From: Fistulifera solaris
Lineage: Eukaryota
DNA length: 64,000 nucleotides
Assembly (NCBI GenBank): GCA_030295235.1
Contig: AP026139.1
Span: 186,001-250,000, forward strand
Direction: 5' to 3'
Shown here: positions 1 to 50,700 of the stretch, piece by piece
Position numbering within the stretch: the first letter of the stretch is position 1
Layout: every line of letters starts with the position of its first letter
Made by a program: the position numbers and the translations under genes
Notes under the pieces: generated by a model
What the model was told of the DNA's origin: nothing
The model's input: the letters and a program-made list of their open reading frames with translations, nothing else
Databases searched by the model: none

Positions 1-3000
1 GGAAGCCATCGGATGCGACAGGTTCACCCGTTTCAGTGCATAGAGAAGAGCGTGGGCCATGCCATTATCAAGCATCACTCTGATAGTCTCCAAGCTGAGA
101 GAAGCCGAGCCCTCTAAATTTCTTCCATTGCTTCGAGGGGCAGCGAAGCCAAGACACAACTCTCCCCACGCTTGCAACGCGGACAGTTCGCTAGTAGCAC
201 ACGTTGTGCTTCCTAATGTTTTGGTTGGCGGCATCGGACCATGCCCTAGTCGCCCACCGCTGAGGCAAAAGACTAAATCGGCTACTACACGTTTGCGCCC
301 TTCGCCAGGACGTGCCACAAGAGCGGCCAAAACGCGCGAAGCAGTCTGGGAAATCTTAAGCACGCGGAACGCGCGAGCTTTCTTCTCTTTAATTAAGGGT
401 GATTCGACTTTGTCGTCTTTCTTGCGATTCCATAATTCGTGATCATTCCGAATAGCCCATCGGTCTTGAGGCAGCAACTTATGAAGAATGAAAGAGACGA
501 AGGATTTTGATGGGACGAGACAACCATCGAGCGCATGGACGAGCTGGACGGCAATTTTTTTGGAACGGTTTAATTTGTAATTGTAAACAACTGATACGCA
601 TGTAGGAATGGCCAAAATCAAGTCAGCCAGTATTTGCAAAAGATCCGCAGCCCAAAGGAAAGTAGTATTTTCATTTTTTGAAAATAGCGTCGACTCGTCG
701 ACTGCCATTTCTATTACCGAGTCGATAACAAGGCAGACAATGCAAGAAGTAGGCGTGTCTTTTGAAACGTGAACCTGCTTGTGATCCGATTTTTCTTTTT
801 GAGGAGTCTTTTTTGAGACTGAGTTTCGTTTCGATGACTTGGCGGGAAGCATTTTTATTTTCGAGGGCGATGACTCTTTGTTTGAATGGATATCAGTTCC
901 AACGACAAGTTCTTCCTTGTCGGCCTTCTCCGCGGCTGCAAGTGAATCCACTCTGCTTCGTCTGGTCTTTCCCTCTATCATCCTTATTCGCACTGGTCCG
1001 CTTTCTCCTTGCTCATAATCGACCTCTACACAGAGAGCAAGCGCTTTCAAAAATAAATCGGGGTCTCTGTACAATAGCGGAGTAACGGTGTCGAGTAACG
1101 ATCTCAAAGAAAACGATTTCTGCCCTGTATTGCTTTTTCTTGCTCAGTTTCGCGATAGAGGCCCTTATTTCATTTTCCATTGTCATCTGCAAAGAAGTCT
1201 CGTCTTCCATCAATCGACGGAGAACCAACGTGACTAGTCCAGAATTTCCGGTAAAGCGGGCTTCTTGTGGCAAATTTAGGATGGCTTCAACGATTCCACA
1301 CCGAAGAAACTGAGCGGATATGTTAGAGAAATGACAGAGCCGGAGCAATAGGAGTAAGCCTGCTTGTGCTAATCCTGGAGATAGGGCGTTGTCTTGTGGG
1401 AAATCAACGAGAAGCCGTCTACAAATAGCGACGCAGGATTGTAGCAGCGAGCTAGGAAGAAGTGGGAAAAACACGGGAAGGGATGCTAGAGAAACTTTCC
1501 TCGTCGCACTACGTCCTTTATCGGCTTTCTCAGGATCGGCATCGCTCCGCTCATGATTGTTGCTGCTCGATGAATTTTGTGCGTCGCGTGAGCCTTCGTG
1601 TCCATTAATCAAAGAAAAAACAGCATCCGCAGTACATGAAAGTGCCGCGAGTCTGTCCGAATGATCCTTGTAGACACGATGGAAGTCGCTTTCTACTTCT
1701 GCACCGCCATCTTCACTTTGATCTTCAGTCAATACAGCACTTGGCTGTGCCATAATATCAAGTAGCAGCAAAGACGGGGTCATCCACGCGGGACTCGAAC
1801 GTACACTGGGGTCCCTCGATTCAAGATAAACCGATAAGCAAGCAACAAGGTCGGACACAATGTTAAATTTCAGAACTGACAGCCGTGTTCTAGGAAGTGC
1901 GCGGATGAAAAGTACTGTGGCGTGGCACAAAGACGCTACACAGCTTTCGTCATCCTTGTCGATTCTATGCGGACTCATATCAGTTCCTTCTTTCAAACTT
2001 ATCTTTCCACATAAGTCCCCAAAAACAGAATTCAAAACAAGATCACGTTTTTCAGGATACTTGTGACAGAAGTCCAGCAAAAAAGAAGTGACTACAACAG
2101 TAATAGCTTCTCCCTCACCGTCTCCTGTAGCTTTCCCGATGATGTCGACTGAGCTTCTGCTGCCGTGGAGAAGATTACACGCTACTTGAGGAATGTCATC
2201 AACCCACGATGTCAACGAATCGTTTATTCGTTCCCACTCCACATCCTTACAAGGTGGTTTCGATGTCGTTGTCTCTAAATCTAATTTGTCTAGAGACTCA
2301 GGGACGTCATCTTCGCTGGTCCTATCTCCCCGCTCAGCTTCTACCCTATCCGTTCGGTGAGAATCTGGAAGTGCTTGAGCAAGTTCTAATCTCTCGGCAC
2401 GACGTCGTTCGACTGTTCGCGGGCTAGGAGGAAAATTCGACAGCGCATATTCCATCGCTAAGTCGACTCTATTCGACCTGATGCTCTCAATTGCATCGAG
2501 TGCATGATCACGTGTAAAACCCATCTCCATTAAACGATTTATTGCCTCTTCACTCGCCTCAAAAATTTCTTCTTCTTCCGTTGCTGTTACTTCGTCGTTT
2601 CGCATGTGAACGATTTCAGAGCTAACACTTCTGCGGTTGCTGTGGGGTTGGTCCTGCTGATCCACAGGCGCGTTTTTCTTTGCCGCATCCTCAAGGCAGA
2701 TAAGAATATCTCCAACCAATCCCGTTAGGGGATGTGTAATGAATGATGGAGTCTGACATATTCGGTCGTCAAGCCAGCAGCCCTTCACGATAGTCGATAT
2801 GGAAAATTGCAAAAATCTGACCACAGATTCAGGTCGAAAGAAAGGACTTGAAACGCTACCTTCTGGCTGAAATCGATCGAGATCACCGACACGAATAAGT
2901 GTCGCTGCATCTTCCAATTCATACGACTCATGATAGAAGCACCAGGAGATGAAGACACAGGCGTGGATATCAATTTGCGGAGCAAAGTCAGGACAGGGGG

Positions 3001-6000
3001 GAAGCTAGCTGCCACGTTGCGGCTTACCAATCGTTTCTCTCCAGAGGGGTTCTCTTCAATTACTTTGCGCTTGACCGCAAAATCACTGAAACCATGATCA
3101 AAAACGAACCGAATTGCATCGAACATACTTAGTTGGGTATCGTCGTTGGTGGTCGAGCTGTCGCAAGAAGCGATCAGGTTTACAAGCAGTGGGAAATTTA
3201 TTGCCCTCCGCTCTCTTCTGTCCTCAAACAGGCAGGCATAAATGTGGTTGACAATGCAGCTAAAATACATCGCCACCCCACCAGAACTAATTTCCAATGT
3301 ACCGTCTTTATCCCGTACAAAATTTAGAACAGCTGGTAAAGATAGCGCCATGTTTACATTTTCGGCAAGGATCCCTGTCGTCCACGCTATGTGGGCTCCA
3401 ACTGTACCCTCATCAAAAGACACAGCTCTGACTTGCAAGGTTCGTATACCTTGGGTTACCAAGCGTGATAAAGAACTAAAAAGTTCAGCATATCCTGCTT
3501 GGCCTCTGGCAAGCACACCAACAGCCACTGTTTTGAGGTCCGGTACACCAGCTTCAACACGCCGTTGAGGCTCTGTCAAAGCTTTTTCTTTGTCGTCGCA
3601 TTCACCATCGAATGAAGAATCGGAGTCCCAAATGCTCAATACCTCTGCTATGGGCTCACGCCCATGGCCACGGGTCATCTCTGACACCCAACCCCGAATT
3701 GTGCGGTACCTCATAATCCCAGAAGAATTTATACACCGATCATAAGCAACTACAACTTCTCCCATTTCCAAATTACCGACATTCGCACAAGAATCGATCT
3801 CCATGCCGTCCCGTAGAACAGCTCCCTCTGGACAAACTATTCGCAGCTTATACCGCCTTGACTTGACGCGTCGCGTCAAACGTTGCACTTCATTTGTCTC
3901 AAACCATTCTTCGGTCCTGACTCGACACACTTCGAATAATGCCAAGCGGTGAAACTCGGCGAGCCGTGAGAGAACGTTCTCAAAGTAAGAGGATGATATT
4001 TCCTTTTTCCACTCCCTTTCCGACCGACTCCATCCGGTCATATCTTGGCTCCTTTGCGAAGCAGCCTTTATTGCCATTGCAACGATATTTGTAATCCACT
4101 GAATCTGCGCAACGTGGCGTAGATAATTCGAAAGATGTCTTGCTTGATCCAATGGAAGAGGCTCCTTGCCAACCAAATACGGTTCTTGGGGGAATGATTC
4201 AATTGCAGAACACCCAAGATCTGACGAAAGGGTTTGTCGACATCGGTTGAAATCGTCGAGATAAGATTTTGCTACCGCGCCAATCTTTCGAACGAGCTTT
4301 AACGTATCATAGCGGACGTACAGGCTTTTCAAGGTTACTGACAACGCTTCTTCCAGTTTAGAGTGATGCAAAGTTCCTAAAGACGGCGAACTCATACCAG
4401 ATACGTGGGATAACAATTGCAATCCACATGGCATCGACGCCGGAAATATCTTGAGTAATGCATCTAATCCACCGGCTTCGACAAAAGCTTCACAATGATC
4501 TTCGTTGTGTAGAATTTGCTCCAACAACTGCGAAAAATTCATTACATATTGAATAAGACATGTTCGCATTTCTTCTACATTTTTCTCCTCATGACGAAAC
4601 GCATCTTCTAAGACTCTTAGCTCGTCTGCGTACATAACAACTTCATTCATTGCTTCAGTTATCGCCTGCAAAATTTGAGGGCGAAGACGATCTACGTGCC
4701 GCATAACTTCATCGAGGCCGGTTCCAATCACAGCAGTCATTTCATTTAGAAGACACCGACTTCTAGGCATAGCATACGCAGGATGATAAAAAACGCGAAG
4801 CAGCGCTGGAAAAGGGTTTTTGCTCTTCACCGCCTTAGCACCATCTTCTGTTAGTGAAAGCGCCGCAAGGACATTTGGTATTGCCATGATCAGCTCAGAC
4901 ACAGCTGGTATTGATGGGTCACCGCTCTCCGTCGTCCTCACGATCATACTGATGTAAGCATCAGCTAGCCCCGATTTATGAACATGGTTGACACAGTGAG
5001 GGTCACTGTTTAATACTTCTGTGAGCATTGCTGAGACCAAAGCGACAAGATTGCCGCCAAAAACGTCTACATTATCCAGAATAGCAATAAGAGCCTTCTT
5101 CAGAGCAGGTTTCCTTATTTCAGCACCGCCAGGTAGCGTAGTGCCTGACATGGCGGCAGACGTTGATTCTGGCTGAAACACAACGTTAAGGCAAGTCAAC
5201 AAAGTGAACAACAAGACTTGCTGCGAATAGCGAATCCGAATTGGGGTTTCGACTTGAACCATCTCAGCATTTCCATCCGGGTCGACATAAGATATGATTG
5301 GTACACCAATGAACTCAATCTCTCGAGAAAGGACTTTCATCACAACGTCTAGACCACTGAGCTCATGAAATGTCAACAGAGCATTACCATGCGTGACGAA
5401 TGCTCCTTCCAGTAGCTGCACAGCCTGGGAAATGACGTAACGCAGCATACACAAAATGCGGACGTCATTTTCCACACCAAGTTCCTTCAAGGTATGAACT
5501 GGATCCACCGATACCGTCGTAAGCAAGGTTGGAATAATACCACAGTCCACTAGCGCCGTAGTGCCAGCCGGGGTTGCAACTACAGCGGATGTCAAGGTAA
5601 GGATGTTGTCAATCAAGGCTAAGGCCTGCTCTACTTGGACCTTTCGTGGAACACTGCTTGAAGTGAGAGCTGATGCTTCCAGAAACGCCACGCCGATTTC
5701 CAGTGACTCGTTTTCGGGCGGGCTTGTCAGAGGGACATCCGTTGTATGTAGACAGGAGAGCGAATACCGAATCAAAGTCGGTAAAACACCCAGATACTGT
5801 CCCTTCCCAACACCTAACTCAATCAAAACAGATGACAATCGAGTTGTCCCCGTCAACGCACCGTTCGTTAAACCGTCTCTTCGTAAAACGAGAGCGGTCA
5901 GTGCTTCGACTGCCAACAGTCGAACCTTGTAGGGAATCACGTTCTGCAGTAAGTTTTCCACCGTTGGATGGGCGGCAACATGTGCTCCACTCACTGTAGG

Positions 6001-7097
6001 TCGTATTAAGTCGACCACTTCCGCACATAATTCGGGTTGGGCAGAAAAGTAATTCGTAATGGCGTCTTGTGACGGATGCGAGTGCAGCATAATGATCAAC
6101 GCTCGGAGACGACGTTCAACAGCCTTGATTCGACTGTCTCGACAATGAAATGACTTCGCCAAACGAATATCTGAAAGCAGGGCAAATTGACGCTCCTTTG
6201 GAACTTGCGGACACGAAAAGAGGAGTTCCGCGGTGGATTTGACACTGGTGACTTTCCGCCGTTTGTTACTCTCGTCAAACTGTCGATCCACCAATATATC
6301 CTTCCCCGTCAAAATAATTTCCTGCAGATCGGGATCATAATATTTAAAATGCACTTCCCCAGCTTCCGGTGGCAACCTTTCCTGTTCGTCCGTGAGAACC
6401 GTCGTCTCCAAACCGAGTCCCAGCGCTCGTGTACCCCAACCGCGCGCACATGCCACCACCCGATGGAGGGGGAAGTTGATGCAACGACGTGGCGTGCACT
6501 GAAGGTTCCGGTGCTTGCTGTTTGTGCAACGCCGGAGGCAATGCGAGCGCTTGTAAGGCCGCCAATGCCCCATCGACAATGTCTTCCGAAGAGGCCGCCA
6601 ACAACTCCAACAAAATCGAAGTCGATTGATAGACCGATTTACCCGTCGCATTGCGGAGTATCGTTTCCGTAAAAGATAAGAGTACCTGGAGATAAGACAA
6701 GACTTCCTTGGGTACATTCTGAGTATCTTCCACGTTTTTGGCGTATTCACGCTTCGGATCCTCCGACGGAACTAGGAGAATCGATCGACTATGTTTGACC
6801 AGAATTGATTCCAAAGCAGCATCAATCACATTCAATTGATGAATCCAGCAATGTAAATCAATCTATTAAGAATTGAATGAGTACCGAATTCGTTCTCACG
6901 AGGATACCTTTCAAAAAACGTACCTGCTGTTCGAACGATCGCTGATGCACAGGTTGCAATTCATTCACCAATTTTTCCAAGGAACCCTCCGCAAGAGGTA
7001 AGTTGATAGCCTGCAATTCATCAAAGACATTTTGAAAGACATCATCGTCTAGATTTTGAGCCGAATAGCCAGTTCCACTAGCTAAGATAGTAGGCAT
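1..7097 (-). CDS. HUWE1: HUWE1/Tom1/UPL1-type HECT E3 ubiquitin ligase, N-terminal part (ARM-like DUF908/DUF913 region plus UBA); runs off the left edge
   Basis: ATG at 7097. A GT-AG intron at 6863-6923 joins ...SFEQQ to IDLHCWIHQLNVIDAAL, which resembles the HUWE1 N-terminal motif. Fragments 6344-6835, 2785-6750 and 1013-2917 continue the protein (IPNVLAALSL, GTGLDEVMRH, UBA-like EEAINRLMEMGFTRDHALDAI...AMEY). Several 1-nt frameshifts. The HECT domain is not in the window. Confidence 0.85.
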
Positions 7098-29052: not shown

Positions 29053-30487
29053 TCATTGAGACGCTCGCGTCGGCGGTCGACGTAGCGCCGTGACTGCTAT
29101 CGATATGTCATCACGATAGCGTCCTTGCTTGGCTTGCTGCCAGGCTTGAGCGGCTGCGAATACTAAATGTTCACAAGCGGATATAGGATGCACACCCGTG
29201 GCCTCAAAAAGAGAGTGAGCCAGTATTTTGGCGATATCCCCTTCATCTAAGTAATCCATCATTCCATCTGTGGCACTGATAGCAAAGATATAAACATCAT
29301 CTTCCTCGTGCGATCCGACCCAACCGTCATTTTCGACTTGATATCCTTCCATTTCCGTCGCCACGATCGTCGGGATATCCAATACGTGCACAATTGGATC
29401 CGGTATGACACCCATCTTCCCCGCCGCCCAATCCCCAATCGAACGACTCATGGCCAAACCCGTCGGTGCCATCGTTTCCGGATCCTGATACACCACCCGA
29501 CTGGTACCCCGTATCGGAATATACACTTGACCTCCCGCCGCTTCGACGCGGGCTTTTTCTTCCGGCAAATTGGGTTTGTCTTCACGGGTCATGTACACAA
29601 TTTCACAGCGCATCGTCGAAGGACGATACGCCACAATGAAACTCCTTGAATCGCCCGCATTGGCCACGTATATTTTGGACCCTTGTCGGAGGACCACCGT
29701 GGCGGTGCAACGCCCCGATGGGTCGGCGGGTACGCGTTGATCCAGTTCAATGAACGTTTCGGACAACACGTTGGCCGTTTTTCCATAATATCCTCGGATG
29801 AGGAACAGTGGTCTAATGCGTTCCGCAATTTGGTCGCGAGTAACGGAGGTAGTTCGGTCGCAGCAAATTCCGACACCTGTTCTCCTCGCGGAGCATGACC
29901 ATCAAAGACTCCCATGAGTATTCGTTCTTGTTGAATGGCCGTATTCGACGAGGATGATTCTTTCGTGATATAGTAAGGTGATACAATGACGGCACGATCT
30001 TGATTGATTTGATCGGTGAGTTGGCCTCCTTTGTAGCCAATCAAGGTCAAAGTCACGGCATCGGTCGCGATGGATTCTTGCAAAACACCAACCGAATGTC
30101 GATCCGCATGGATTCGTTTCGTATCACGAATCTTTGCAAGGCCAATTTGACGGCATCATAATTATAATGCACATCGTGGGGCGTTTTGGGGCAGCCGTAA
30201 TAGGGACAGCGCGGATCGCGATTGGGTGGAGACGCGGCTTCCATCGAGGCGGTCGACGACATGGGCCGCGAACTCCATGCCGCAGCCGTTGTGAGTACAA
30301 TGAGAGGTGATATGAGTCGCATTTTGTTGTTGTTGTTATTGGTATTGTTGTTGTTGGTATTGCTAGTGTGGTTGTGACTCTGTTGGTGCGGAGAATTCGA
30401 TATTCGCAAGGCCAAGGCCGATCGTATCGAGCGTCGAGAATGGTAATATGGAAGATGTGATACTACGGAGCGACACTGTCGTAACAT
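29053..30487 (-). CDS. PP2C/PPM-family protein phosphatase (frameshifted), Arg/Ser-rich N-terminus resembling a mitochondrial presequence
   Basis: QINQDR, VFDGH, VANAGDSR, GLAMSRSIGD, SATDGMMD and DDIS are spread over ORFs 30053-30487, 29589-30083 and 29053-29769. Confidence 0.88.
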
Positions 30488-30895
30488 TGCGACAAATCTC
30501 GCTTTTGTTCCGTCCCCTTGACGAGAAGCAACAGCTGGAGGAGAAAAAAAATACTGAAAAAAAAACGAATGGTTCTCCGTCTTTGTAGGACACCGTCATG
30601 GTCGAAACGGAAGAAAACAAAAGCCGTTCCAAGCCACCGGCGACGAACCAAAAGCGAAGTTGCTGACACGTCGACACGTCGACACGTCACCCTTTCTTCT
30701 TTATGGCCTATACTAAGAAGGACGGACTCTCCGACTGGAGTACAAGTCATTCTCTCTGTGACATTCATCCAGCGAACTAGTAAAACGTTCGTTCAGTCAC
30801 GAGTTCCCAGTGTCGACGATGGCGATCTCGGAAGGAACTCCACAGGTTTCACAACACTACCTGGTAGGTACAAGGTTAGTAAGAAATAAAAGATC

Positions 30896-36907: not shown

Positions 36908-37566
36908 GACTGAGTCCAGTCGTGACGAAATCCGCTACATTTTATGACTAGAGAAAAGTAGTAGCAAGTCTATTCTATTCTCTACGGAGTATTACGCATT
37001 TTTTTATCGTAGCTGACAGTTCAAACGTCGTTCTTTTGGTGAAGCCACCATGAAAACTAGTGCTACGGACGAATAGTAAATGAACATGGGCTTCCACTTG
37101 ACGTTTCCTTCGTGGCCCACCTTTTTGCATTATAGCTTCAGAATCTCCCTGCCTCATCTGAATACAAAGTAGTCGTGTGACTTTCCTTGATGGTCATTCC
37201 GAAAATTTGTTTTGCAGATTCTGCTCCAAGGCCGCTTTTCCCAGTCGAATTCAGAGCCTCGCTTAATGGCAATTTCGATTCTTGACTACGCACTCGTGAC
37301 GAAAGAGCGGCTCATAGATATAGCGGAACGAAGTTCTAGATCTACATTAAGGGATAGAGTAAATTATCGCCACGACACTGCTCGGTGCTCGGTGCGCGGT
37401 GGAACCCACCAGATGTTCTCGTCGTCGGAACGAGCTTTTTTCTTTTTTCGAGAGTGAACACAAATGCCATGACAAAGAGAGTATGCAATCCCATTTCTGT
37501 GACCTCTTTCATCCCATTTTTCCCTTTCTTTGCTTTAATCCCTTTCAATACTCGATCCTATTCTGC

Positions 37567-40500
37567 ATGGGTCGTATTCGGCACCCGATCTTTCTCATGA
37601 TACTTACATTTCTCGCACGGAGTAGTACTCGATCGCTCGTGTTGGTCAATGCCTGGAGTGAATCTTTGCATACAACAAGGAAAGCGTACGCTTCATTCGA
37701 ACCACTTTATTTCGCGAATACTCGGCCCGGTCGTCGTCGTCGAAGCTTGTCAATATCTGCGGTGGATCTGGCCGATGACGAAGAAAGCACAGCGGAATCA
37801 TTTGCGACAGATGCTTTTCAAGTCCAGGCGCCCTTTCCACCGGCGGGAGATCAACCGGCAGCGATACAGGCTTTGATCGAGCGTATTCAGAAAGGAGATC
37901 GGTTTGCCTTATTGCGTGGCTGCACCGGCACGGGAAAGACTTTGGTAATGAGTCATGTGATTGCCGGCACACAAAAGCCAACACTCGTCCTGTGTCACAA
38001 CAAGACTTTAGCCGCGCAATTGGCGCGAGAATTGCGCGCTTTTCTCGGACCTGTGGTCGAACTGTTTGTGAGTTATTACAATCATTACCGGCCCGAGTTT
38101 TATCGAGAAACGACGGGGACCTACATGGCGAAAAAATCGTCGGTCAATCCGGATTTGGATGTGCTACGCCACCGAGCTACTCGCGCCCTCGCGTCGCGAA
38201 GGAACGTTGTTGTGGTAGCGTCGGTGAGTTGCTTGTTTGGTTTGGGGCTACCCAAGGAATACTTGGATGCATGTGTACACTACAAGACCCATGACACTTT
38301 TGATTGGGATGAGTTCTTAGAGAAGTTGACTCGATTGCAGTACCGAATGGCGGAGGACGATGAAAGTTTTGAAAGAGGAAAATATCAGATATTACACGAT
38401 GATAGCACAGACTCGAAAGTGATAACCTTATGGCCTCCTTACGAGAAATTTCCCATGCAGCTTGATGTTACTCCAGTGGCGACTAATTCGACGCAATTTT
38501 CTGTTCAAAGTATCCGTCAAGGTAATCAAGGCGGATTTCAAGCCATCACCGAATGCAAACTATTTCCCGCCAGTCACCATGTTACTCAAGATATGGAAGC
38601 GGCTTGTTTGTCTATTGAAGAGGAATTACAGGAAAGGATCAATTATTTTAATGACATGGGGAACACAGACGCGCGCAATCGCTTGCAAGTCTCTGTATTG
38701 AGGGATTTAGATCAACTTCGTACTTGGCACAGTTGCAAGGGCATTGAGAACTACAGTCGCCATTTAGCGGGTCGAGCCGCTGGCTTACCTCCCGACACTC
38801 TCTTAGATTACATGAGACTACTCAATGGGGATGATTGGCTACTCATGATGGACGAAAGCCACGTAACACTACCTCAACTGAGCAGTATGTTTCGAGGCGA
38901 TCAGTCTAGAAAGCGTCAATTAGTCAAACATGGATTTCGGTTGCCATCTGCAATGGACAACCGTCCACTGAATGAACTCGAATTCTGGGACCGTGCCAGT
39001 CAAACAGTTTTTGTTTCGGCGACTCCGTCACCCCGTGAGCTTGCACTAACAAACAGCGACCCAATAGATATGATCATCCGACCCACGTTTGTTTGTGACC
39101 CTAATATCGAGGTTCGACCGTCTGATGGAAAGCACATTGATGATTTGATCGAGGAGATAAAAGCTCGCGCAAAGAAAAAAGAGGGAAGTCTCGTTATCAC
39201 CCTGACAAAACGCGACGCAGAAGATTTGGCTAGTCACCTGGAAGAATGTGGCGTGAAGAGTGCGTACTTGCATTCAGGTCTTAAAACGCTGGAGCGTTCG
39301 AATGCTTTGCGAGCTCTGCAAGTGCGAGAAATTGATTGTATAGTTGGTATTAATTGTTTGCGTGAGGGACTCGATTTGCCGCAGGTCTCGCTAGTAGCGG
39401 TTCTTAATGCCGACTGTGAAGGATTCCTGCGTTCGGAATCGGCATTGCTTCAAGTTGTCGGACGAGCGGCTCGAAATATTCATGGAATGGCGATCTTTTA
39501 TGCAAACCGAGTGACAGATAGCATGAAACGGTGTATGGATCTGACAGTGCATCGACGACAATTGCAGCTTGATTACAATAAGAAGAACGGGTGTTCTACG
39601 AGATCAACGACAGGATCTTCGGCGCTGTCCTTTTTGATTTACTCAAGGATCAGATAGAGTTTGAAAAAGGGCTGATGGCAGAAGCGTTTAAAGCCGTTCA
39701 ACTTTCAAGTTTTACTCCGGAGCCTCTACAAGTTATTTCTGCAGAGAAAGGAAGAAGTCAGATTGTGACGGACCACATTCCGAATACACCCGGCGTTTAC
39801 TTCTGGAAAGACGCCGAAGGATCGATACTATATATTGGGAAGGGTGTCAATCTTCGCAGTCGTGTTAAATCATATATTTCGACGAGTGCCAAACACAGCC
39901 CTCGTATCAAGGAAATGGTTCGGCGCGCCAAGTCGGTCGACGTTGTCTTGACAGCCAGTGAGCGCGACGCATTACTTCTCGAATCAAATTACATCAAGCA
40001 CCACCAGCCCCCTTTTAATGTTCTTTTGAAAGATGATGAACATTATCCATACATTTGTGCGAGTGTGGGAGACTCAATTCCGAGTCTCACCGTTGTGCCA
40101 TACCGCCAGCCAGAACATGTCAGTGGATCATCGCGTTACCGATACTTTGGCCCGTATACGAGCTTCCAAGAAATTAATGCCATCCTTGATGACATAGAGC
40201 GAGTGTATGATTTGAGAGTGAAATCATTTATGACTCGCCAGGGATCTTTGTCGAAAGAAGCATACAATGAGCTCTTTGACAAAGCTCTGGAAGAGATCTT
40301 CGGCGATTCAAGAGGGTTTTCTCACAATCTGCGAATGAGACGTCGCCAATACGAAGAAGCGGGACTGTTATTCGATTCAGAGAGTAATGCATGCAGGGAT
40401 GTTGTAACCGTCCAGCTTCTACCAGATGATGAAGCCTTGGTGAGTGTGATGCAGCTTCGGAATGGGATCATGGCTGGAAGGTATAGATATACCTGTCAAG

Positions 40501-41402
40501 TCCCCGCTGGTCTCGGGGAGGATGATCTAGGCTCTGTCCTTCAGACTGTTTTGACCGAAAGACATTATCCATCAGGAAGTGAACACTCAACAAAATGGTT
40601 TCCCGACAATGTTTTACTTTCTCGTCCTTCATTAGACGTAAAAGTTTTGAAAGAGAGTATTCGAGAAGGGCGTTCACGGATTGAACCGAATAGAAAAGGA
40701 AGGATTCAAGTCAGGACAGCGGCAACACGTGGTACGCAGAAGGAAATTGATGACAGAACTTTAGAGTTTGCAACAAAGAACATGAATCAGGACGTACTTA
40801 ACCATGCCAACAAATACACCATTCCTTTTCATGGAGATGTGGCGTCCACGGAGTTGGCTGATCTATTGGCCCTAGAAAATCCTCCGTCGCGCATCGAGTG
40901 CTACGATATTAGCCATACGCAGGGAGAGAATGCCATTGCTTCGAGGGTCGTGTTTGAGAATGGCGAGCCGCAGCCTCACTTATATCGACAGTTTGTAATC
41001 CGATCTGTCGTTGGTATCGATGATTATGCAAGTATAGAAGAAGTTTTGGAGCGACGTTTTCGGCGGGCATTTAATGCAAATACGGATTTGGAGGGAGACG
41101 ACTCATGGGCCGTTCCGGATTTGGTGGTGATTGATGGAGGTAAAGGGCAGTTAAATGCAGCTTTGAAAGGAATTTTGAAAGCAACTGAATCACCGGAAGG
41201 CCAATGCGATATTCGATCACTAGTCGCCATATGCGCTCTGGCGAAAGATAAGGAGGAAGTATTTGTGCCTGGTCGGAGTGATCCAGTTAATGATCATCCC
41301 GACTCGCGCGCTCTGCTTTTGTTGAGAGCCCTCCGTGATGAAAGCCACCGTTTTGCATTAAAGGCGCATCGAAAGAGACGGTCGGTTTTGAAAAATGTAT
41401 AG
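37567..41402 (+). CDS. uvrB-uvrC: UvrB (37567-~39635) plus UvrC (~39630-41402) excinuclease, probably a single fusion protein with plastid-type presequence
   Basis: UvrB: PAGDQP, GCTGTGKT, HNKTLAAQL, FVSYY beta-hairpin, GIENYSRH, DESH, GFRLPSAMDNRPL, VSATP, LREGLDLPQVSLV, QVVGRAARN. UvrC: GIY-YIG PGVYFWKD..LYIGK..LRSRVKSY, YFGPY, RIECYDISH, DDYA, PDLVVIDGGKGQL, LRDESHRFA. The two frames overlap at a T run (39631-39635). Confidence 0.92.
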
Positions 41403-41575
41403 TACAATATTCAAACAACTTATTGAACCCATTGATTAATAGGATATCATCTCTTTATTAAGAGACTTCAATGTCGCTGTACATCCGCTACCCAAGACAG
41501 GCTAGAAGTAGAGGGCCTTGGGTTTTCCGACGAAGTCTCAAGGGCGGAGACGACCGAAGTTCTAATATCATATGA

Positions 41576-43009
41576 TCATTCGTAAAGTGACGACCCTTCC
41601 GCCTCTAATTGCTTTCCAATATTCACAAAATCCACAATCTGATTCGGATCCGACGCCCCCACGATAATTTTATCAATTCGCTTTTCTTTCCACACATGTC
41701 GTAAGGCAAACTCTTGTAATCGCATATCTTCTGGGACAGGATACTTGGGAGAATCCCCACCACTATTTTCTCCATGGATCAAAAGATGTCGCACATTTTT
41801 GGCAATCGAATACTTGACCGCCAAATTGAACGCCCCAAAGAATGCCTCCAAAACTTTGGCGGTATCTTCGTCGTAGGACTCAAACGTGTCGTGTATCAGA
41901 GGGATAACTTGCTGCAGCAAGAATTCTTCGTGCGCCGCAAAGGATCGCACTTGATCGAGGCCCGCATCCACATCGTGCAACAGGCTCTGCATGAGCTTAC
42001 ACCCGTCCAGCGTTTCTCGTTGATCGGTATCGAGCTCGATTCCTTGCGACTTGAGTTCCAAAATTTCTTCCGCATCGAAATGTGCCATGGCGGCCTTGAG
42101 TGCGACTTGATAAGCCTCCGGAAGTCCCGTCATTTGATGCGTCCATTGCAGTGGATCGTTCTTGTTCATGGTGGCGGGTAGTGGATAATCTCGCAACACA
42201 AACGGATGTGATGTGGAAGTTCCCCGATCCGGGTAACACGATAGCGGACGCATGGCATAATATTGAATGTGCGCTGGCGCATCTTTCTTGCTATTCAGAA
42301 AATCGGAACTTTCCAAAAGGTTGAAAGGGAATTGTACGACACGGAAATCCGGTGTTTCTTGTTGCAAAGCGGGTGCAACATGATGCTGCCAGGACAAATG
42401 CAAGGGATGTGTAGCGGGCAAACTGAATCCATTGCTAACAATCCCGTACGAATGCAAAGGACTTTCACGAACGAACTTTTGCAGTTCTTTGAATGATTCT
42501 GACAATTGATGAGCCAGTGTCTCATCCTTCTGGTCTTGTAGATTGTGATTCTTTTGGACTTCGGGATTGTGCAGCAGAACGACCAATTCGAGATGGTCCG
42601 GGTATTGTTCCGCCAGTTTCATCAACGGAGACTGCGTTAGAGCATAATCCAAGTAATTGGGTCCTATATTGTGTAACACTCTATTCGTTTCGACAACAAC
42701 GTCGCCCGGGAAGAACGCGCCGTGAATTTCCTCGGTCCCCGTTTCGGCCGCCGCGACTTGTCGATATCCGACTCGCACGAGACATTGAATCTTGCGGGGC
42801 ATTTCCTTTTCGAGAATTTGTGCCAAAGCCGCATCGCCTTCTTCTGTTCCCGCTTCTATACAAGAGAGACCTTGTTGAAGAGCGGTTTGAACGAGGAGCG
42901 GATGCTGCGACGAACGCCATTTCGACCCGCCCAAGCCGAGGCGGTCAATTGCCACTGTCGATAGACATCGTTTGCTTGTAATTCTCCTCAATAGCGTACA
43001 AGAAATCAT
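41576..43009 (-). CDS. Aldo/keto-reductase-like TIM-barrel protein with mitochondrial-presequence-like N-terminus
   Basis: Intact 477-aa ORF. RLGLGG, VLLHNPE, YGIVSN, VQFPFNLLE and IIVGASDPNQI resemble AKR core elements. Confidence 0.6.
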   Translation of the reverse strand: MISCTLLRRITSKRCLSTVAIDRLGLGGSKWRSSQHPLLVQTALQQGLSCIEAGTEEGDAALAQILEKEMPRKIQCLVRVGYRQVAAAETGTEEIHGAFFPGDVVVETNRVLHNIGPNYLDYALTQSPLMKLAEQYPDHLELVVLLHNPEVQKNHNLQDQKDETLAHQLSESFKELQKFVRESPLHSYGIVSNGFSLPATHPLHLSWQHHVAPALQQETPDFRVVQFPFNLLESSDFLNSKKDAPAHIQYYAMRPLSCYPDRGTSTSHPFVLRDYPLPATMNKNDPLQWTHQMTGLPEAYQVALKAAMAHFDAEEILELKSQGIELDTDQRETLDGCKLMQSLLHDVDAGLDQVRSFAAHEEFLLQQVIPLIHDTFESYDEDTAKVLEAFFGAFNLAVKYSIAKNVRHLLIHGENSGGDSPKYPVPEDMRLQEFALRHVWKEKRIDKIIVGASDPNQIVDFVNIGKQLEAEGSSLYE

Positions 43010-47799: not shown

Positions 47800-50700
47800 T
47801 TAGAAGCCCTCAAAAAGGGCCATATGTTTATCGCTGAGAGGGGGGCCCTTGTCCAACGTCTTGTCGGTCACACCACTCCAATCATCAAAGTTTGAAGTGT
47901 CGAACAGACTCTTGATCGTGGGAATCCATGGAGCTTGTATTGCTCGCTCCCTCATTCTGACCGTGCTGAGATCACCGAACCACCTATGACTTAAAATGTC
48001 TTTTTTCTCCGCGAGCCAAGGACCCAAGACGGTTCGATGGAGACTTTTCCAGTAACCTTGAAATGAAATCAACCGCCTCCGAAGATCGTCCTTCCAATTC
48101 GGGAAAGTCTTCTTCAACGATCAGACGATAAAGTTCGAACTGTTCAATTCCGTCCTCATAAAAGGACTAAAGCCCATGACCATTTCGTAGCTCAATACCC
48201 CCAGTGCCCAGTGGTCGACAGGCCAACTATGGCCTTGCGATATCACAATTTCAGGCGCAAGGTAGGCCGGGGTGCCACAAAGAGTGAATGTTTGATCCAA
48301 GACTTTCTTGGTGAAGCCGAAGTCAATCAGCTTGGGAAAGCCAAACCTGTCGAGCATAACGTTTTCAGGTTTGAGATCGCGGTATACATATTTTTTTTTG
48401 ATGCAGATGCGCAAGGGCATCAGCAATTCCCAGCAAATAAAAGCGCGCTCTATCCTCATGTATCTTGATCCGACCGTCATCATTGTTGAGAATCGAGAAT
48501 AGCTCTCCGCCCGGCACAAAATCCAAAAGCATATAGACAAAAGCAGCGTCTTGAAAGGTTTGGAAAAGATCAATGATGAAGGGATGGTTCACATTCAAAA
48601 GAACATCCTTCTCGCGCTTGCAAACCTCGACCTCTCCTTCGGTAATAAGATGGTACTTCGATTGGATCTTTAACACGTAAGGTTGCTGCTTTTTAGCCTC
48701 CTTGTCAACGACTAACCAAACCTGTCCGAATTCGCCTTCTCCCAAACAAACCCGTCTTTCCAAGTTTTCAAGCTTGACATTGACATTCAGGCTTGCCTTT
48801 GGCGAATATAGTTGAAGATTATCGTTGTCAAAGGCATCGGAAGATGCTTTTGTTTTCTTAGCCTTTTGTCATCTTTCGATGAACGTGTTTTCGAAATTTT
48901 ACTTCCTTCAGCTATCACATCAACATGGGCTTTTGTCGACTTCGGAGAAGATATTGGACACTCTACAGCGTTAGTATCGTTTGCAACAACGATTTGATCA
49001 CCAAAAAAAGCATAATAATCTTTCACCGGTAAAACACCGCATGTGCAATCGGATTCTGCAGTTACTTTGGTCAAAGACCTCCCTTTGAGTGCCTTGCTAT
49101 CCCTTGCTGACTGGAATAAGTTTTCCCCAAAGTGTGCCCCTTCTGAAATTAGAAGTAAATTTCGCCCTTCAGTTTCATAAACCTTACCAGATCGTACGAA
49201 ATAAATTGCGGCGTCTACGTATTGATCGACTTCAATGATCGTGTCGCCTTTTGAAAATTCGACGTTCTTTATCAAGCGAGTCAAGCCCACAATCTCGTGG
49301 TGTTTCAAAGGTTTTCCAGGTTTACGTTCAAATGACCTCACGGAATGAAGAGTTCTAGAATGCATAGGAACCAAACTGGAACCCATTGCTTGGTCCTTCA
49401 ATTCTCTGGATACAACATAGGCTTTTCCGTGAGTCAAAGCGACAACATTTGCCTTCATGATTGGTTCTTCGGCGAGTACTGCATGTTTTCCAAAGTAGTC
49501 ACCAGGGCCCATAATTTTGTTGTCCTTACTTAAACGGCCAACCTTTACGTCTCGGCACTCAACACTTCCTTCTGCGATCAAGAAAAACTTGTCACCAATA
49601 TTGTCTTGTTTCGCTAGAGTTTCGCCTTTTTGAATTTGATGAGGGTGAGAAGATTGGACAGCTTGTGCAGCTGCTCTGTCGACGCATTTTCTAAGAAGTC
49701 GAGCTTTTCTAGTAAGGCGCGCTTGTGTACGGTACTCCTAGTCGCCTCGTCTTGAAGCAAATGCCTGAAGGTCGTTTGGTCGAATCGGTACAAGACGGAA
49801 TCGGTAGTAGCCGTTGCAGATGCGAGACGACGTGAGTTGTGCAGCAATGCTTCCTCACCGAAGGAATCACCAGTTGTTGCAACATCGTGCCTTTCACCAT
49901 CAATGATAATGTCACACTGCCCATCAGCAACGACATAGAAGTACTTGTCCTCATCACCTTGAGAGAATAACTGGGTCCCCGCTGGAACGTTAACCTTTTC
50001 AAACGCAGCTGTGAGTGACTTAATTGTCTTCTCGGGTAAATTTTCGAAGACAAATCTCTTCTTGATTGCATTCTTCAGCAGTCTATCCTCTTGATCCGTT
50101 TTTGGGTGTTGAGGAGCTCTAAAATTTGTTGGCAGCTTGGTTGGTACCTGATAGACGTTACCAGCCTGACGTATCACAGGTACGCCGTCTCTTCCACCTT
50201 GGTCCTCAAAACGAGCAATTCTGGCAATAAACGAGGCTTTCTCTTTTCTCTTTCGAGGAGATAGCAGCGGACCTGTCATCTTTTGGGTTGTATAGGGCTT
50301 AAGTCAGGTTCGACGATTTTTGTTTCTGCGCGCTTTTTTCTTTTCCTTTTTCTCCTTCTTGTCCTTCTCTTTCTTACTGCTGTTAGACTTTTTTGGGGAA
50401 GACTGGGGAGACTCGAACTCAGCAAATGGTGGCACTGGAATTGCTGCCTTGCTCAAGGGGGACTTTATTCGTACGGTCTCATCATTGTTCATTGAGGATT
50501 CGTCGTCGTCGTAGAGCTCTTCATCTGCTTCAGGAATAACTTCCGGATGCTTATCCGCATTGAACACCTCGCGTATAGGACCGTCTTCATTGGAAAAGCT
50601 TTCTGATCCTTCTTGGCCTGATTCAACGAATAGGCCTCTATTGCACTGCACAGGCAGGGAGAATCGATGTCGCTCCTTGGTGGGCGAAGTGGGTTCGGAA

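Follow-up and report, generated by a model that had tools for sequence, protein, structure and literature searches.

A nuclear single-chain UvrB-UvrC protein of Fistulifera solaris with cyanobacterial affinity and a probable plastid-type presequence

Results

One gene split by a homopolymer error

We analysed a window of 64,000 nucleotides from Fistulifera solaris (contig AP026139.1, positions 186,001 to 250,000 of the forward strand; all coordinates below are those of the window) and found at 37597-41402 a single gene whose product joins a UvrB helicase to a UvrC nuclease. In the assembly this gene appears as two open reading frames (ORFs) that follow one another on the + strand, 37399..39657 (752 amino acids [aa], UvrB-like) and 39591..41402 (603 aa, UvrC-like). 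The UvrC part is read in the UvrB frame minus 1, a frame that opens no earlier than 39582, after a TAA at 39579, and the UvrB frame is ended by a TAG stop at 39655-39657; the two open frames share about 73 bases, and the sequence TCCTTTTTG (39628-39636), with its run of T, lies inside this overlap. When an X is placed at the T run, a single ORF of 1268 aa extends from 37597 to 41402, and this read-through is identical to P0178 (1269 aa, single chain), the nearest relative and a genomic record, in 1139 of 1270 alignment columns (89.7%, with 3 gap columns). P0178 reads the junction in frame as ...STTGSSALSFFDLLKEQIE....

Five public sequencing runs cover the stretch to differing degrees: X1-X4, which come from one study and one coded organism, contain 0.81-0.92 of the sampled words, and X5, a sediment metagenome, contains 0.05. 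Contigs of X1-X4 were compared over 37300-41600. An additional T is inserted behind 39630 in 7/7 contigs that cross this position and in 4/4 runs, with a depth that equals the total depth, and contigs of X2 (37471-39809), X3 (38659-41143) and X4 (39009-41243) bridge the junction. The frameshift and stop at 39631-39657 are a homopolymer error of the assembly, T5 for T6. A preliminary description of this DNA, made from the letters alone, had proposed a one-base repair at this place, yielding one continuous frame, and had named reads across 39600-39660 as a check; the four runs supply the one extra base that it had called for, P0178 reads through the junction, the stop is not kept, and correcting the T run restores the continuous frame. 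Apart from this, the compared stretch has one indel, a T6 at 37436-37441 of the window that is T5 in contigs of X1 and X4. The two one-base indels in 4.3 kb both concern T runs, and the assembly may hold many more.

An intron across the junction was considered and rejected: by chance, the frame stays open across many GT..AG pairs of length 3n+2, but the contigs run through without a joint. No intron-like joint was found anywhere within 37468-41243 in contigs of X1-X4 and, since the bridging contigs show no joint inside the gene, the gene has no intron.

Domains kept and domains lost

The features of the gene are as follows.

37420..37596, + strand: 5' leader, with in-frame ATGs at 37483 and 37567 as alternative starts (from contig starts and ATG positions).
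37597..37809, + strand: probable N-terminal presequence with a short hydrophobic stretch, VNA followed by W (37645-37656) and a Ser/Arg-rich stretch (home-made motif test).
37810..39606, + strand: UvrB helicase core, positions 2-585 of a 663-position hidden Markov model (HMM) of bacterial UvrB (Pfam, NCBIfam, alignment).
37927-37941, + strand: Walker A motif GTGKT, invariant in alignment A1.
38068-38088, + strand: beta-hairpin VSYYNHY (alignment A1).
38278..38577, + strand: UvrB domain 2 (UvrA/Mfd docking in bacteria), strongly diverged and with insertions (weak match to PF17757, alignment).
38851-38862, + strand: DESH, invariant in alignment A1.
39460-39477, + strand: GRAARN of the UvrB core, motif VI kept.
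39574-39591, + strand: YNKKNG, end of the UvrB core.
39592..39788, + strand: linker of 66 residues from the UvrB core to GIY-YIG, a conserved motif STTGSS.LS.FDLLKDQI followed by a variable stretch.
39631..39635, + strand: T5 homopolymer, T6 in X1-X4; the one-base assembly error that splits the ORF.
39789..40028, + strand: GIY-YIG nuclease (PF01541, 30.5 bits, cut-off 22.6; alignment with 8 bacterial UvrCs).
40206..40379, + strand: region in place of the Cys cluster and UVR domain (UvrC HMM positions 166-257 unmatched).
40347-40364, + strand: UVR remnant QYEEAG, one helix (aligned).
40425..41357, + strand: RNase H-like domains including the 5'-incision nuclease (PF22920, 19.8 bits; PF08459, 148.8 bits).
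40893-40916, 41019-41033, 41130-41150 and 41337-41357, + strand: IECYDISH, DDYAS, IDGGKGQ and DESHRFA, with the RNase H-like Asp/Asp/Asp/His kept.
41367..41402, + strand: C-terminus HRKRRSVLKNV and TAG stop, with no HhH after it.

The ORF 37399..39657 matches the Pfam families ResIII (1.3e-10), Helicase_C (1.2e-14) and UvrB (PF12344, 1.6e-11) and the NCBIfam model uvrb (TIGR00631, 4.1e-206), and its identity to bacterial UvrB is about 46-48%. The residues of the aromatic beta-hairpin (S159, Y160, Y161, Y164, P166 and E167) are invariant among 12 aligned sequences. The ORF 39591..41402 matches GIY-YIG (4.7e-07), UvrC_RNaseH (PF22920, 8.3e-04) and UvrC_RNaseH_dom (PF08459, 1.6e-43), as well as NCBIfam uvrC (TIGR00194, 1.8e-96) at 324.1 bits, above the equivalog cut-off of 285.45, with 36-45% identity to bacterial UvrC. 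For both ORFs the matches are far beyond chance. Aligned with 8 bacterial UvrCs, its GIY-YIG domain keeps the Tyr, Tyr, Arg, Glu and Asn (in PGVY, LYIGKG, LRSRV, LLLESN and FNVLL). UvrB motifs running directly into UvrC GIY-YIG and RNase H-like domains, as the preliminary description had read them, are thus recovered by both model collections, and the strings that it quoted (RRQLQLDYN, YDLRVKSF..., QYEEAG and HRKRRSVLKNV) are all present in the window.

That description had also held that the UvrB part ends without its C-terminal UVR domain and that the UvrC part lacks the Cys cluster and HhH while keeping a UVR remnant (QYEEAG), and the alignments and HMM scans agree on each count. At the UvrB C-terminus PF02151 gives no match at E<=5, and UvrB HMM positions 586-663 are unmatched and gapped in the alignment. 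Nor does PF02151 match the UvrC half at E<=5 (Microcoleus UvrC scores 39.2 bits), and the Cys cluster is missing from 10/10 eukaryotic rows of the UvrC alignment and present in 8/8 bacterial rows. No HhH family matches either half at E<=5, and UvrC HMM positions 561-623 are unmatched.

The linker motif STTGSS.LS.FDLLKDQI is common to the window protein, P0178, Seminavis P0216 and Cyclotella P0230. In an AlphaFold (AF2) model of the relative P0189 (1196 aa; 47-sequence alignment; mean confidence pLDDT 82.7, predicted template-modelling score [pTM] 0.60), the linker forms helices at 605-617 and then falls below pLDDT 50 over 616-646 (about 30 residues); as modelled, the linker is a flexible tether. 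The same model superposes on UvrB crystal structures with template-modelling (TM) scores of up to 0.83 and on structures of the UvrC C-terminal half with TM scores of 0.61-0.87. Among solved structures, the sequence and fold listings contain neither a full UvrC nor a UvrB-UvrC complex: the chains matched by sequence are UvrB, the UvrC GIY-YIG domain and the UvrC C-terminal half only, and the Foldseek listing holds UvrB and UvrC C-terminal-half entries only. The start of the linker (SS.LS.FDLL, A1 columns ~720-745; window 39592-39653) also aligns with a post-helicase motif of cyanobacterial UvrB (S/N..IL.FL..S) from which Firmicute UvrBs differ, a likeness that fits the cyanobacterial affinity described below.

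An old family of fused proteins

HMMER, run exhaustively with the UvrC half, returned 20,676 relatives at E<=0.001. Domain scans of the best 14 of these identified 9 fused UvrB-UvrC proteins or fragments thereof and 5 proteins of bacterial type; UVR is present in 5/5 of the latter, and neither UVR nor HhH was found in the fused proteins (0/9 in this first scan and 0/3 in a further scan at E<=5), a pattern that fits the earlier suggestion that fusion made the docking modules dispensable. Among all relatives, 91 are at least 1032 aa long, and 91/91 list PF00271 (Helicase_C) together with PF01541 and/or PF08459. A search for algal single-chain proteins with both domain sets, another check named in the preliminary description, yields a whole family. 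Named diatom members number at least 11, and named fused sources include Amphora coffeaeformis, Epithemia clementina, Mayamaea pseudoterrestris, Seminavis robusta, Nitzschia sp. Nitz4, Nitzschia inconspicua, Cyclotella cryptica, Thalassiosira profunda, Cylindrotheca closterium and Pseudo-nitzschia multistriata; two Bacillariaceae metagenome-assembled genomes, MMETSP transcripts and one named red alga, Rhodosorus marinus, are further sources. A search with the UvrB half adds partial models from Stephanocyclus and from the cryptophyte Guillardia theta, the latter with the UvrB part only and grouping with the family. The fusion is old and widespread (diatoms, red alga) and not a novelty of Fistulifera solaris, and the window gene is an ordinary member of a family that is undescribed but visible in databases, where it goes by the names 'excinuclease ABC subunit B', 'system protein B' or 'hypothetical protein'.

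Individual members depart from the diatom form. The red-alga-type fusions P0263 (Rhodosorus marinus), P0111 and P0176 also lack UvrC HMM positions ~167-368, including PF22920, and are more reduced. P0262 (1774 aa) carries long low-complexity inserts and groups with Guillardia, and P0030 (1090 aa) sits on a very long branch (1.25-1.84) with unsure placement.

Domain 2 and the place of UvrA

Domain 2 of bacterial UvrB docks UvrA and resembles Mfd. In the window protein this domain (residues 228-327) matches PF17757 at 16.2 bits, below the cut-off of 22.9, compared with 115.9 for Gloeomargarita UvrB and 120.7 for Pectinatus UvrB, and no part of the 47-sequence family alignment is less conserved; its fold signature (RG.Y, LWPP, R-I/V) can still be aligned. 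This decay hints that UvrA may be gone or changed. The preliminary description had remarked that no uvrA lies in the window, and indeed the 71 stop-to-stop ORFs of at least 150 aa in the rest of the window gave no match to a UvrA, Mfd or UvrD domain.

A different view would be that the fused protein has ceased to be a classical excinuclease loaded by UvrA and, alone or with another loader, acts as a helicase-nuclease specific for structures in organelle DNA (bubbles, flaps, stalled forks or R-loops). The decayed domain 2 would suit such an enzyme, as would a UvrB part that scores 686.2 bits, under the NCBIfam equivalog cut-off of 750.1, and the lack of a fused UvrA domain even in the longest member, P0262; in vitro, bacterial UvrBC can also cleave Y and bubble substrates in the absence of UvrA. 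We nevertheless judge this alternative unlikely, because the beta-hairpin aromatics, the ATPase motifs and both nuclease sites show the conservation seen in repair-proficient UvrB and UvrC and the fold signature of domain 2 is still recognisable.

A probable plastid-type N-terminus

Three in-frame ATGs (37483, 37567 and 37597) precede the UvrB core as candidate starts, and P0178 starts at the equivalent of 37597. N-termini were scored with a home-made motif test, a crude stand-in for a trained predictor, that requires, within 60 residues, small-x-small-F/W after a hydrophobic stretch. The motif occurs in 38/50 full-length N-termini of the fused clusters, compared with a mean of 7.2 and a maximum of 15 in 200 shuffles, and the 30 residues that follow it are rich in Ser (16%) and Arg (14%) and poor in Asp and Glu (2% together). 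An ASAFAP motif is a feature of diatom plastid presequences, as stated in a passage of PMC4329603, and the N-terminus of the window protein probably resembles this bipartite, ASAFAP-type plastid signal. A hydrophobic start of this kind is missing from the red-algal member, as would be expected with a primary plastid.

The protein might instead be bound for mitochondria, or for both organelles, and not for the plastid alone: the hydrophobic stretch is short and rich in Arg and Ser, 12/50 N-termini lack the F/W motif, and dual targeting is known in diatoms, as part of PMC4494062 relates. Such a destination strikes us as improbable when set against the excess of motif-bearing N-termini over the shuffled mean, the cyanobacterial affinity of both halves (see below) and the red-type plastids possessed by all the named organisms.

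Both halves group beside cyanobacteria

Separate phylogenies of the two halves had been named in the preliminary description as a further check. UvrB and UvrC parts were cut with HMMs built from bacterial sequences. For the UvrB tree, 35 of 80 genome-scan loci were chosen to spread phyla, with all 7 cyanobacterial loci kept and internal stops in three translated loci read as X, and 6 named proteins were added; for the UvrC tree we took the gene from 30 of the same genomes and five named proteins, leaving out L085 and L097 (longest ORF not UvrC) and L110 (a fragment). In quick trees of 57 UvrB and 47 UvrC rows, eukaryotes, cyanobacteria and other prokaryotes each occupy one side of a branch, with supports of 100, 95 and 99 (UvrB) and 99, 100 and 97 (UvrC), respectively. 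Careful trees were computed from 36/57 UvrB and 35/47 UvrC rows, the UvrC rows dropped being P0030, P0262, P0291, P0231, P0238, P0004, L089, L091, L105, L107, L108 and L109, mostly long or redundant ones. Supports in these trees (bootstrap/Shimodaira-Hasegawa-like approximate likelihood ratio test) are 100/100 for eukaryotes, 96/90 for cyanobacteria and 99/95 for the other bacteria in the UvrB half and 100/100, 100/100 and 100/98 in the UvrC half, where Melainabacteria branch first among the others. A smaller quick tree with 16 bacteria did not tell cyanobacteria and the rest apart as sister.

In the trees of both halves, the eukaryotic proteins therefore form a single group that has a branch in common with the cyanobacteria, as predicted by a single endosymbiotic transfer and a single fusion. 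From this grouping, the most likely history is one in which the gene moved from the plastid ancestor to the nucleus, was fused once and then spread with red-type plastids. Rankings of best matches were not used as evidence of origin: among named matches the UvrC half is closest to Melainabacteria and Nitrospinota, the red-algal UvrC part, compared with proteins of >=625 aa, has only cyanobacteria as named best matches, and scores of the UvrB half are flat across bacterial phyla (544-566 bits).

The gene is embedded among HUWE1-like DUF908/DUF913/UBA (E3), PP2C, Rtf2, PhoD, cNMP-binding protein kinase and 60S L18A genes, and these flanking genes are plainly eukaryotic and nuclear, which bears out the earlier assignment of the locus to a eukaryotic nuclear genome. 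The gene might instead be a bacterial contaminant, or have reached diatoms recently by horizontal transfer from a bacterium outside the cyanobacteria. Such an origin would be compatible with the flat best-match scores and with the otherwise prokaryotic distribution of UvrB and UvrC (PMC1564403 counts 318 UvrCs and none from a eukaryote), and is nonetheless barely credible given the eukaryotic flanks, the probable presequence and the union of all eukaryotes, red alga and cryptophyte included, in one group (100/100 in both trees) beside cyanobacteria.

Elsewhere in the window, ORFs of the same family overlap in different frames of one strand within 48124-50303 (-), 2788-6862 (-) and 29056-30595 (-). 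The pairs include Pkinase (48124-48588 and 48368-48868), cNMP_binding (48790-49737 and 49617-50303) and DUF908 (2788-6771 and 6347-6862), and may reflect introns or further homopolymer frameshifts.

A second copy and transcript-like ends

In 3/4 runs (X1, X2 and X4) the contigs contain a second copy of the gene with 35 differences in 393 bases (~91% DNA identity), seen at 39402-39809 and 41000-41571; this second copy may represent a divergent allele or a homeologue and could be the P0178 gene. In X1 this copy skips 163 bases directly after the stop codon (41407 to 41571, with ends TA..CA). Contigs of X1-X4 start at 37420-37486, and coverage in X2-X4 ends at about 37420-37471 and 41235-41444, like transcript ends, which suggests that the fused gene is expressed.

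The extra T is present in the second, ~91%-identical copy as well. A genuine frameshift in the strain, leaving a pseudogene, a truncated UvrB with a separately started UvrC, or a product of ribosome or polymerase slippage at the T run, could appeal to the assembled T5 with its in-frame TAG at 39655 and, if the runs are RNA, to an RNA-level insertion that is formally possible; it is extremely improbable, given that the T is found at full depth in 4/4 runs and in both divergent copies, that slippage on five T would fall short of 100%, that the genomic gene model of the ~89%-identical relative P0178 is in frame, and that the other discrepancy in the stretch is likewise one of homopolymer length. 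Programmed frameshifting and transcript slippage were dismissed on the same full-depth T6 in all runs and both copies, and on our own reading that no canonical slippery heptamer precedes the T run.

Discussion

We consider it probable that 37597-41402 is one intronless nuclear gene for a protein of about 1268 aa, composed of a plastid-type presequence, a UvrB helicase, a 66-residue linker and a UvrC dual nuclease, that was transferred from the plastid ancestor, fused a single time and spread with red-type plastids. The data show the gene structure, the fusion, its conservation, the domain losses, the retained catalytic motifs and the cyanobacterial affinity; plastid location, incision activity and the manner of loading are inferred. 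Several points weigh against parts of this reading. The runs X1-X4 come from one study, may include the assembly's own source and are not fully independent, and their library type is a guess ('RNA?'). The presequence rests on a crude, home-made motif test that 12/50 N-termini do not pass, and the window protein matches only from the 37597 start, the first match from 37483 or 37567 being ILTF followed by LARS. The trees are unrooted, place eukaryotes beside and not inside the sampled cyanobacteria, contain no Proteobacteria, Bacteroidota or Chlamydiae, and show a long eukaryotic stem (0.48-0.88). The UvrB part stays below its equivalog cut-off (686.2 versus 750.1 bits), and the search for UvrA, Mfd and UvrD took in the window ORFs. 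Bacterial UvrC, finally, needs HhH for some 5' incisions, and dual incision by the fusion is not assured.

In bacteria, UvrA loads UvrB at the lesion, the UvrB hairpin verifies the damage, and UvrC is recruited by a UVR-UVR coiled-coil and cuts on both sides. By analogy, we propose that the fused protein would be imported into the plastid, where its UvrB part would load on DNA and check the lesion with the beta-hairpin and the tethered UvrC part would cut on both sides, 3' with GIY-YIG and 5' with the RNase H-like domain. The covalent tether may stand in for the UVR-UVR coiled-coil that recruits UvrC in bacteria, and such a replacement could explain why both UVR domains have been lost across the family. 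The age and spread of the fusion, the cyanobacterial affinity of both halves and the presequence, none of them foreseen in the preliminary description, would together make the gene a case of organelle repair inherited by endosymbiotic gene transfer.

A bolder possibility, which we put forward tentatively and think more doubtful than the gene history itself, is that in algae of the red lineage (red algae, diatoms and probably cryptophytes) bacterial-type nucleotide excision repair (NER) operates in the plastid with one imported, UvrA-independent polypeptide that both verifies and cuts damage, its UvrA-docking domain having decayed and the tether having left the UvrB-UvrC docking coils without a task. 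If true, it would give the first example of NER in an organelle and a minimal excinuclease of natural origin. Part of a 2006 survey of GIY-YIG nucleases puts the UvrCs at 318, none of them eukaryotic (PMC1564403), and a 2020 review of plant organelle repair holds that organelles seem to be without NER and that genes for UvrA, UvrB and UvrC are lacking in flowering plants (PMC6981420). Our search of full-text literature, with supplements outside its scope, retrieved no description of a eukaryotic UvrB or UvrC or of a UvrB-UvrC fusion; supplements such as that of PMC5462543 (conserved ochrophyte plastid proteins) may list the protein.

Should the plastid role be true, a bacterial excision nuclease would have been retained for organelle DNA by a large share of marine primary producers. 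The family would amount to a natural experiment in repair enzymology, with a tether taking over from the UVR coiled-coil and with a Cys cluster and HhH that can be done without in such a context. Structural work might benefit from a single-chain UvrBC as well, and the family makes organellar NER and excision independent of UvrA directly testable. In practice, the fused proteins go in databases only by the names given above, and a homopolymer error splits the gene in the assembly.

What emerges is a single-chain UvrBC, stripped of its docking modules, of cyanobacterial affinity and probably directed to the plastid, and its nearest counterparts are the separate UvrB and UvrC of bacteria, especially cyanobacteria, with which it shares the helicase core, the beta-hairpin and the GIY-YIG and RNase H-like motifs. 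Unlike these, the fusion is one chain, lacks both UVR domains, the Cys cluster and HhH, has a decayed domain 2, and is nuclear-encoded with a probable eukaryotic presequence. Cho and Cho-ExoIII, as treated in part of PMC1564403, are likewise UvrC-derived GIY-YIG nucleases with accessory domains swapped or lost, and are likewise fused to a repair enzyme; Cho, however, has lost the 5' nuclease and kept the Cys region, whereas the fusion described here has kept both nucleases and lost the Cys cluster, and has UvrB as its partner. In line with this difference, the match of the fusion to the Cho model is weak (60.8 bits, cut-off 367). Short bacterial UvrCs (L106, L107, L108 and L109, from Gemmataceae, Planctomycetota, Magasanikbacteria and Parcubacteria) resemble the fusion in ending at about 557-562 of the 623-position UvrC HMM, without HhH, but they are 401-496 aa long, 0/4 are fused to UvrB, and the Cys cluster and UVR are kept in the two that were aligned (Gemmataceae and Magasanikbacteria). 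Eukaryotic nuclear NER, with its XPD/XPB helicases, XPG and XPF-ERCC1, follows the same logic of helicase verification and then dual incision, yet shares no homology with the fusion and is a multi-subunit nuclear system, not a single chain that is probably directed to an organelle.

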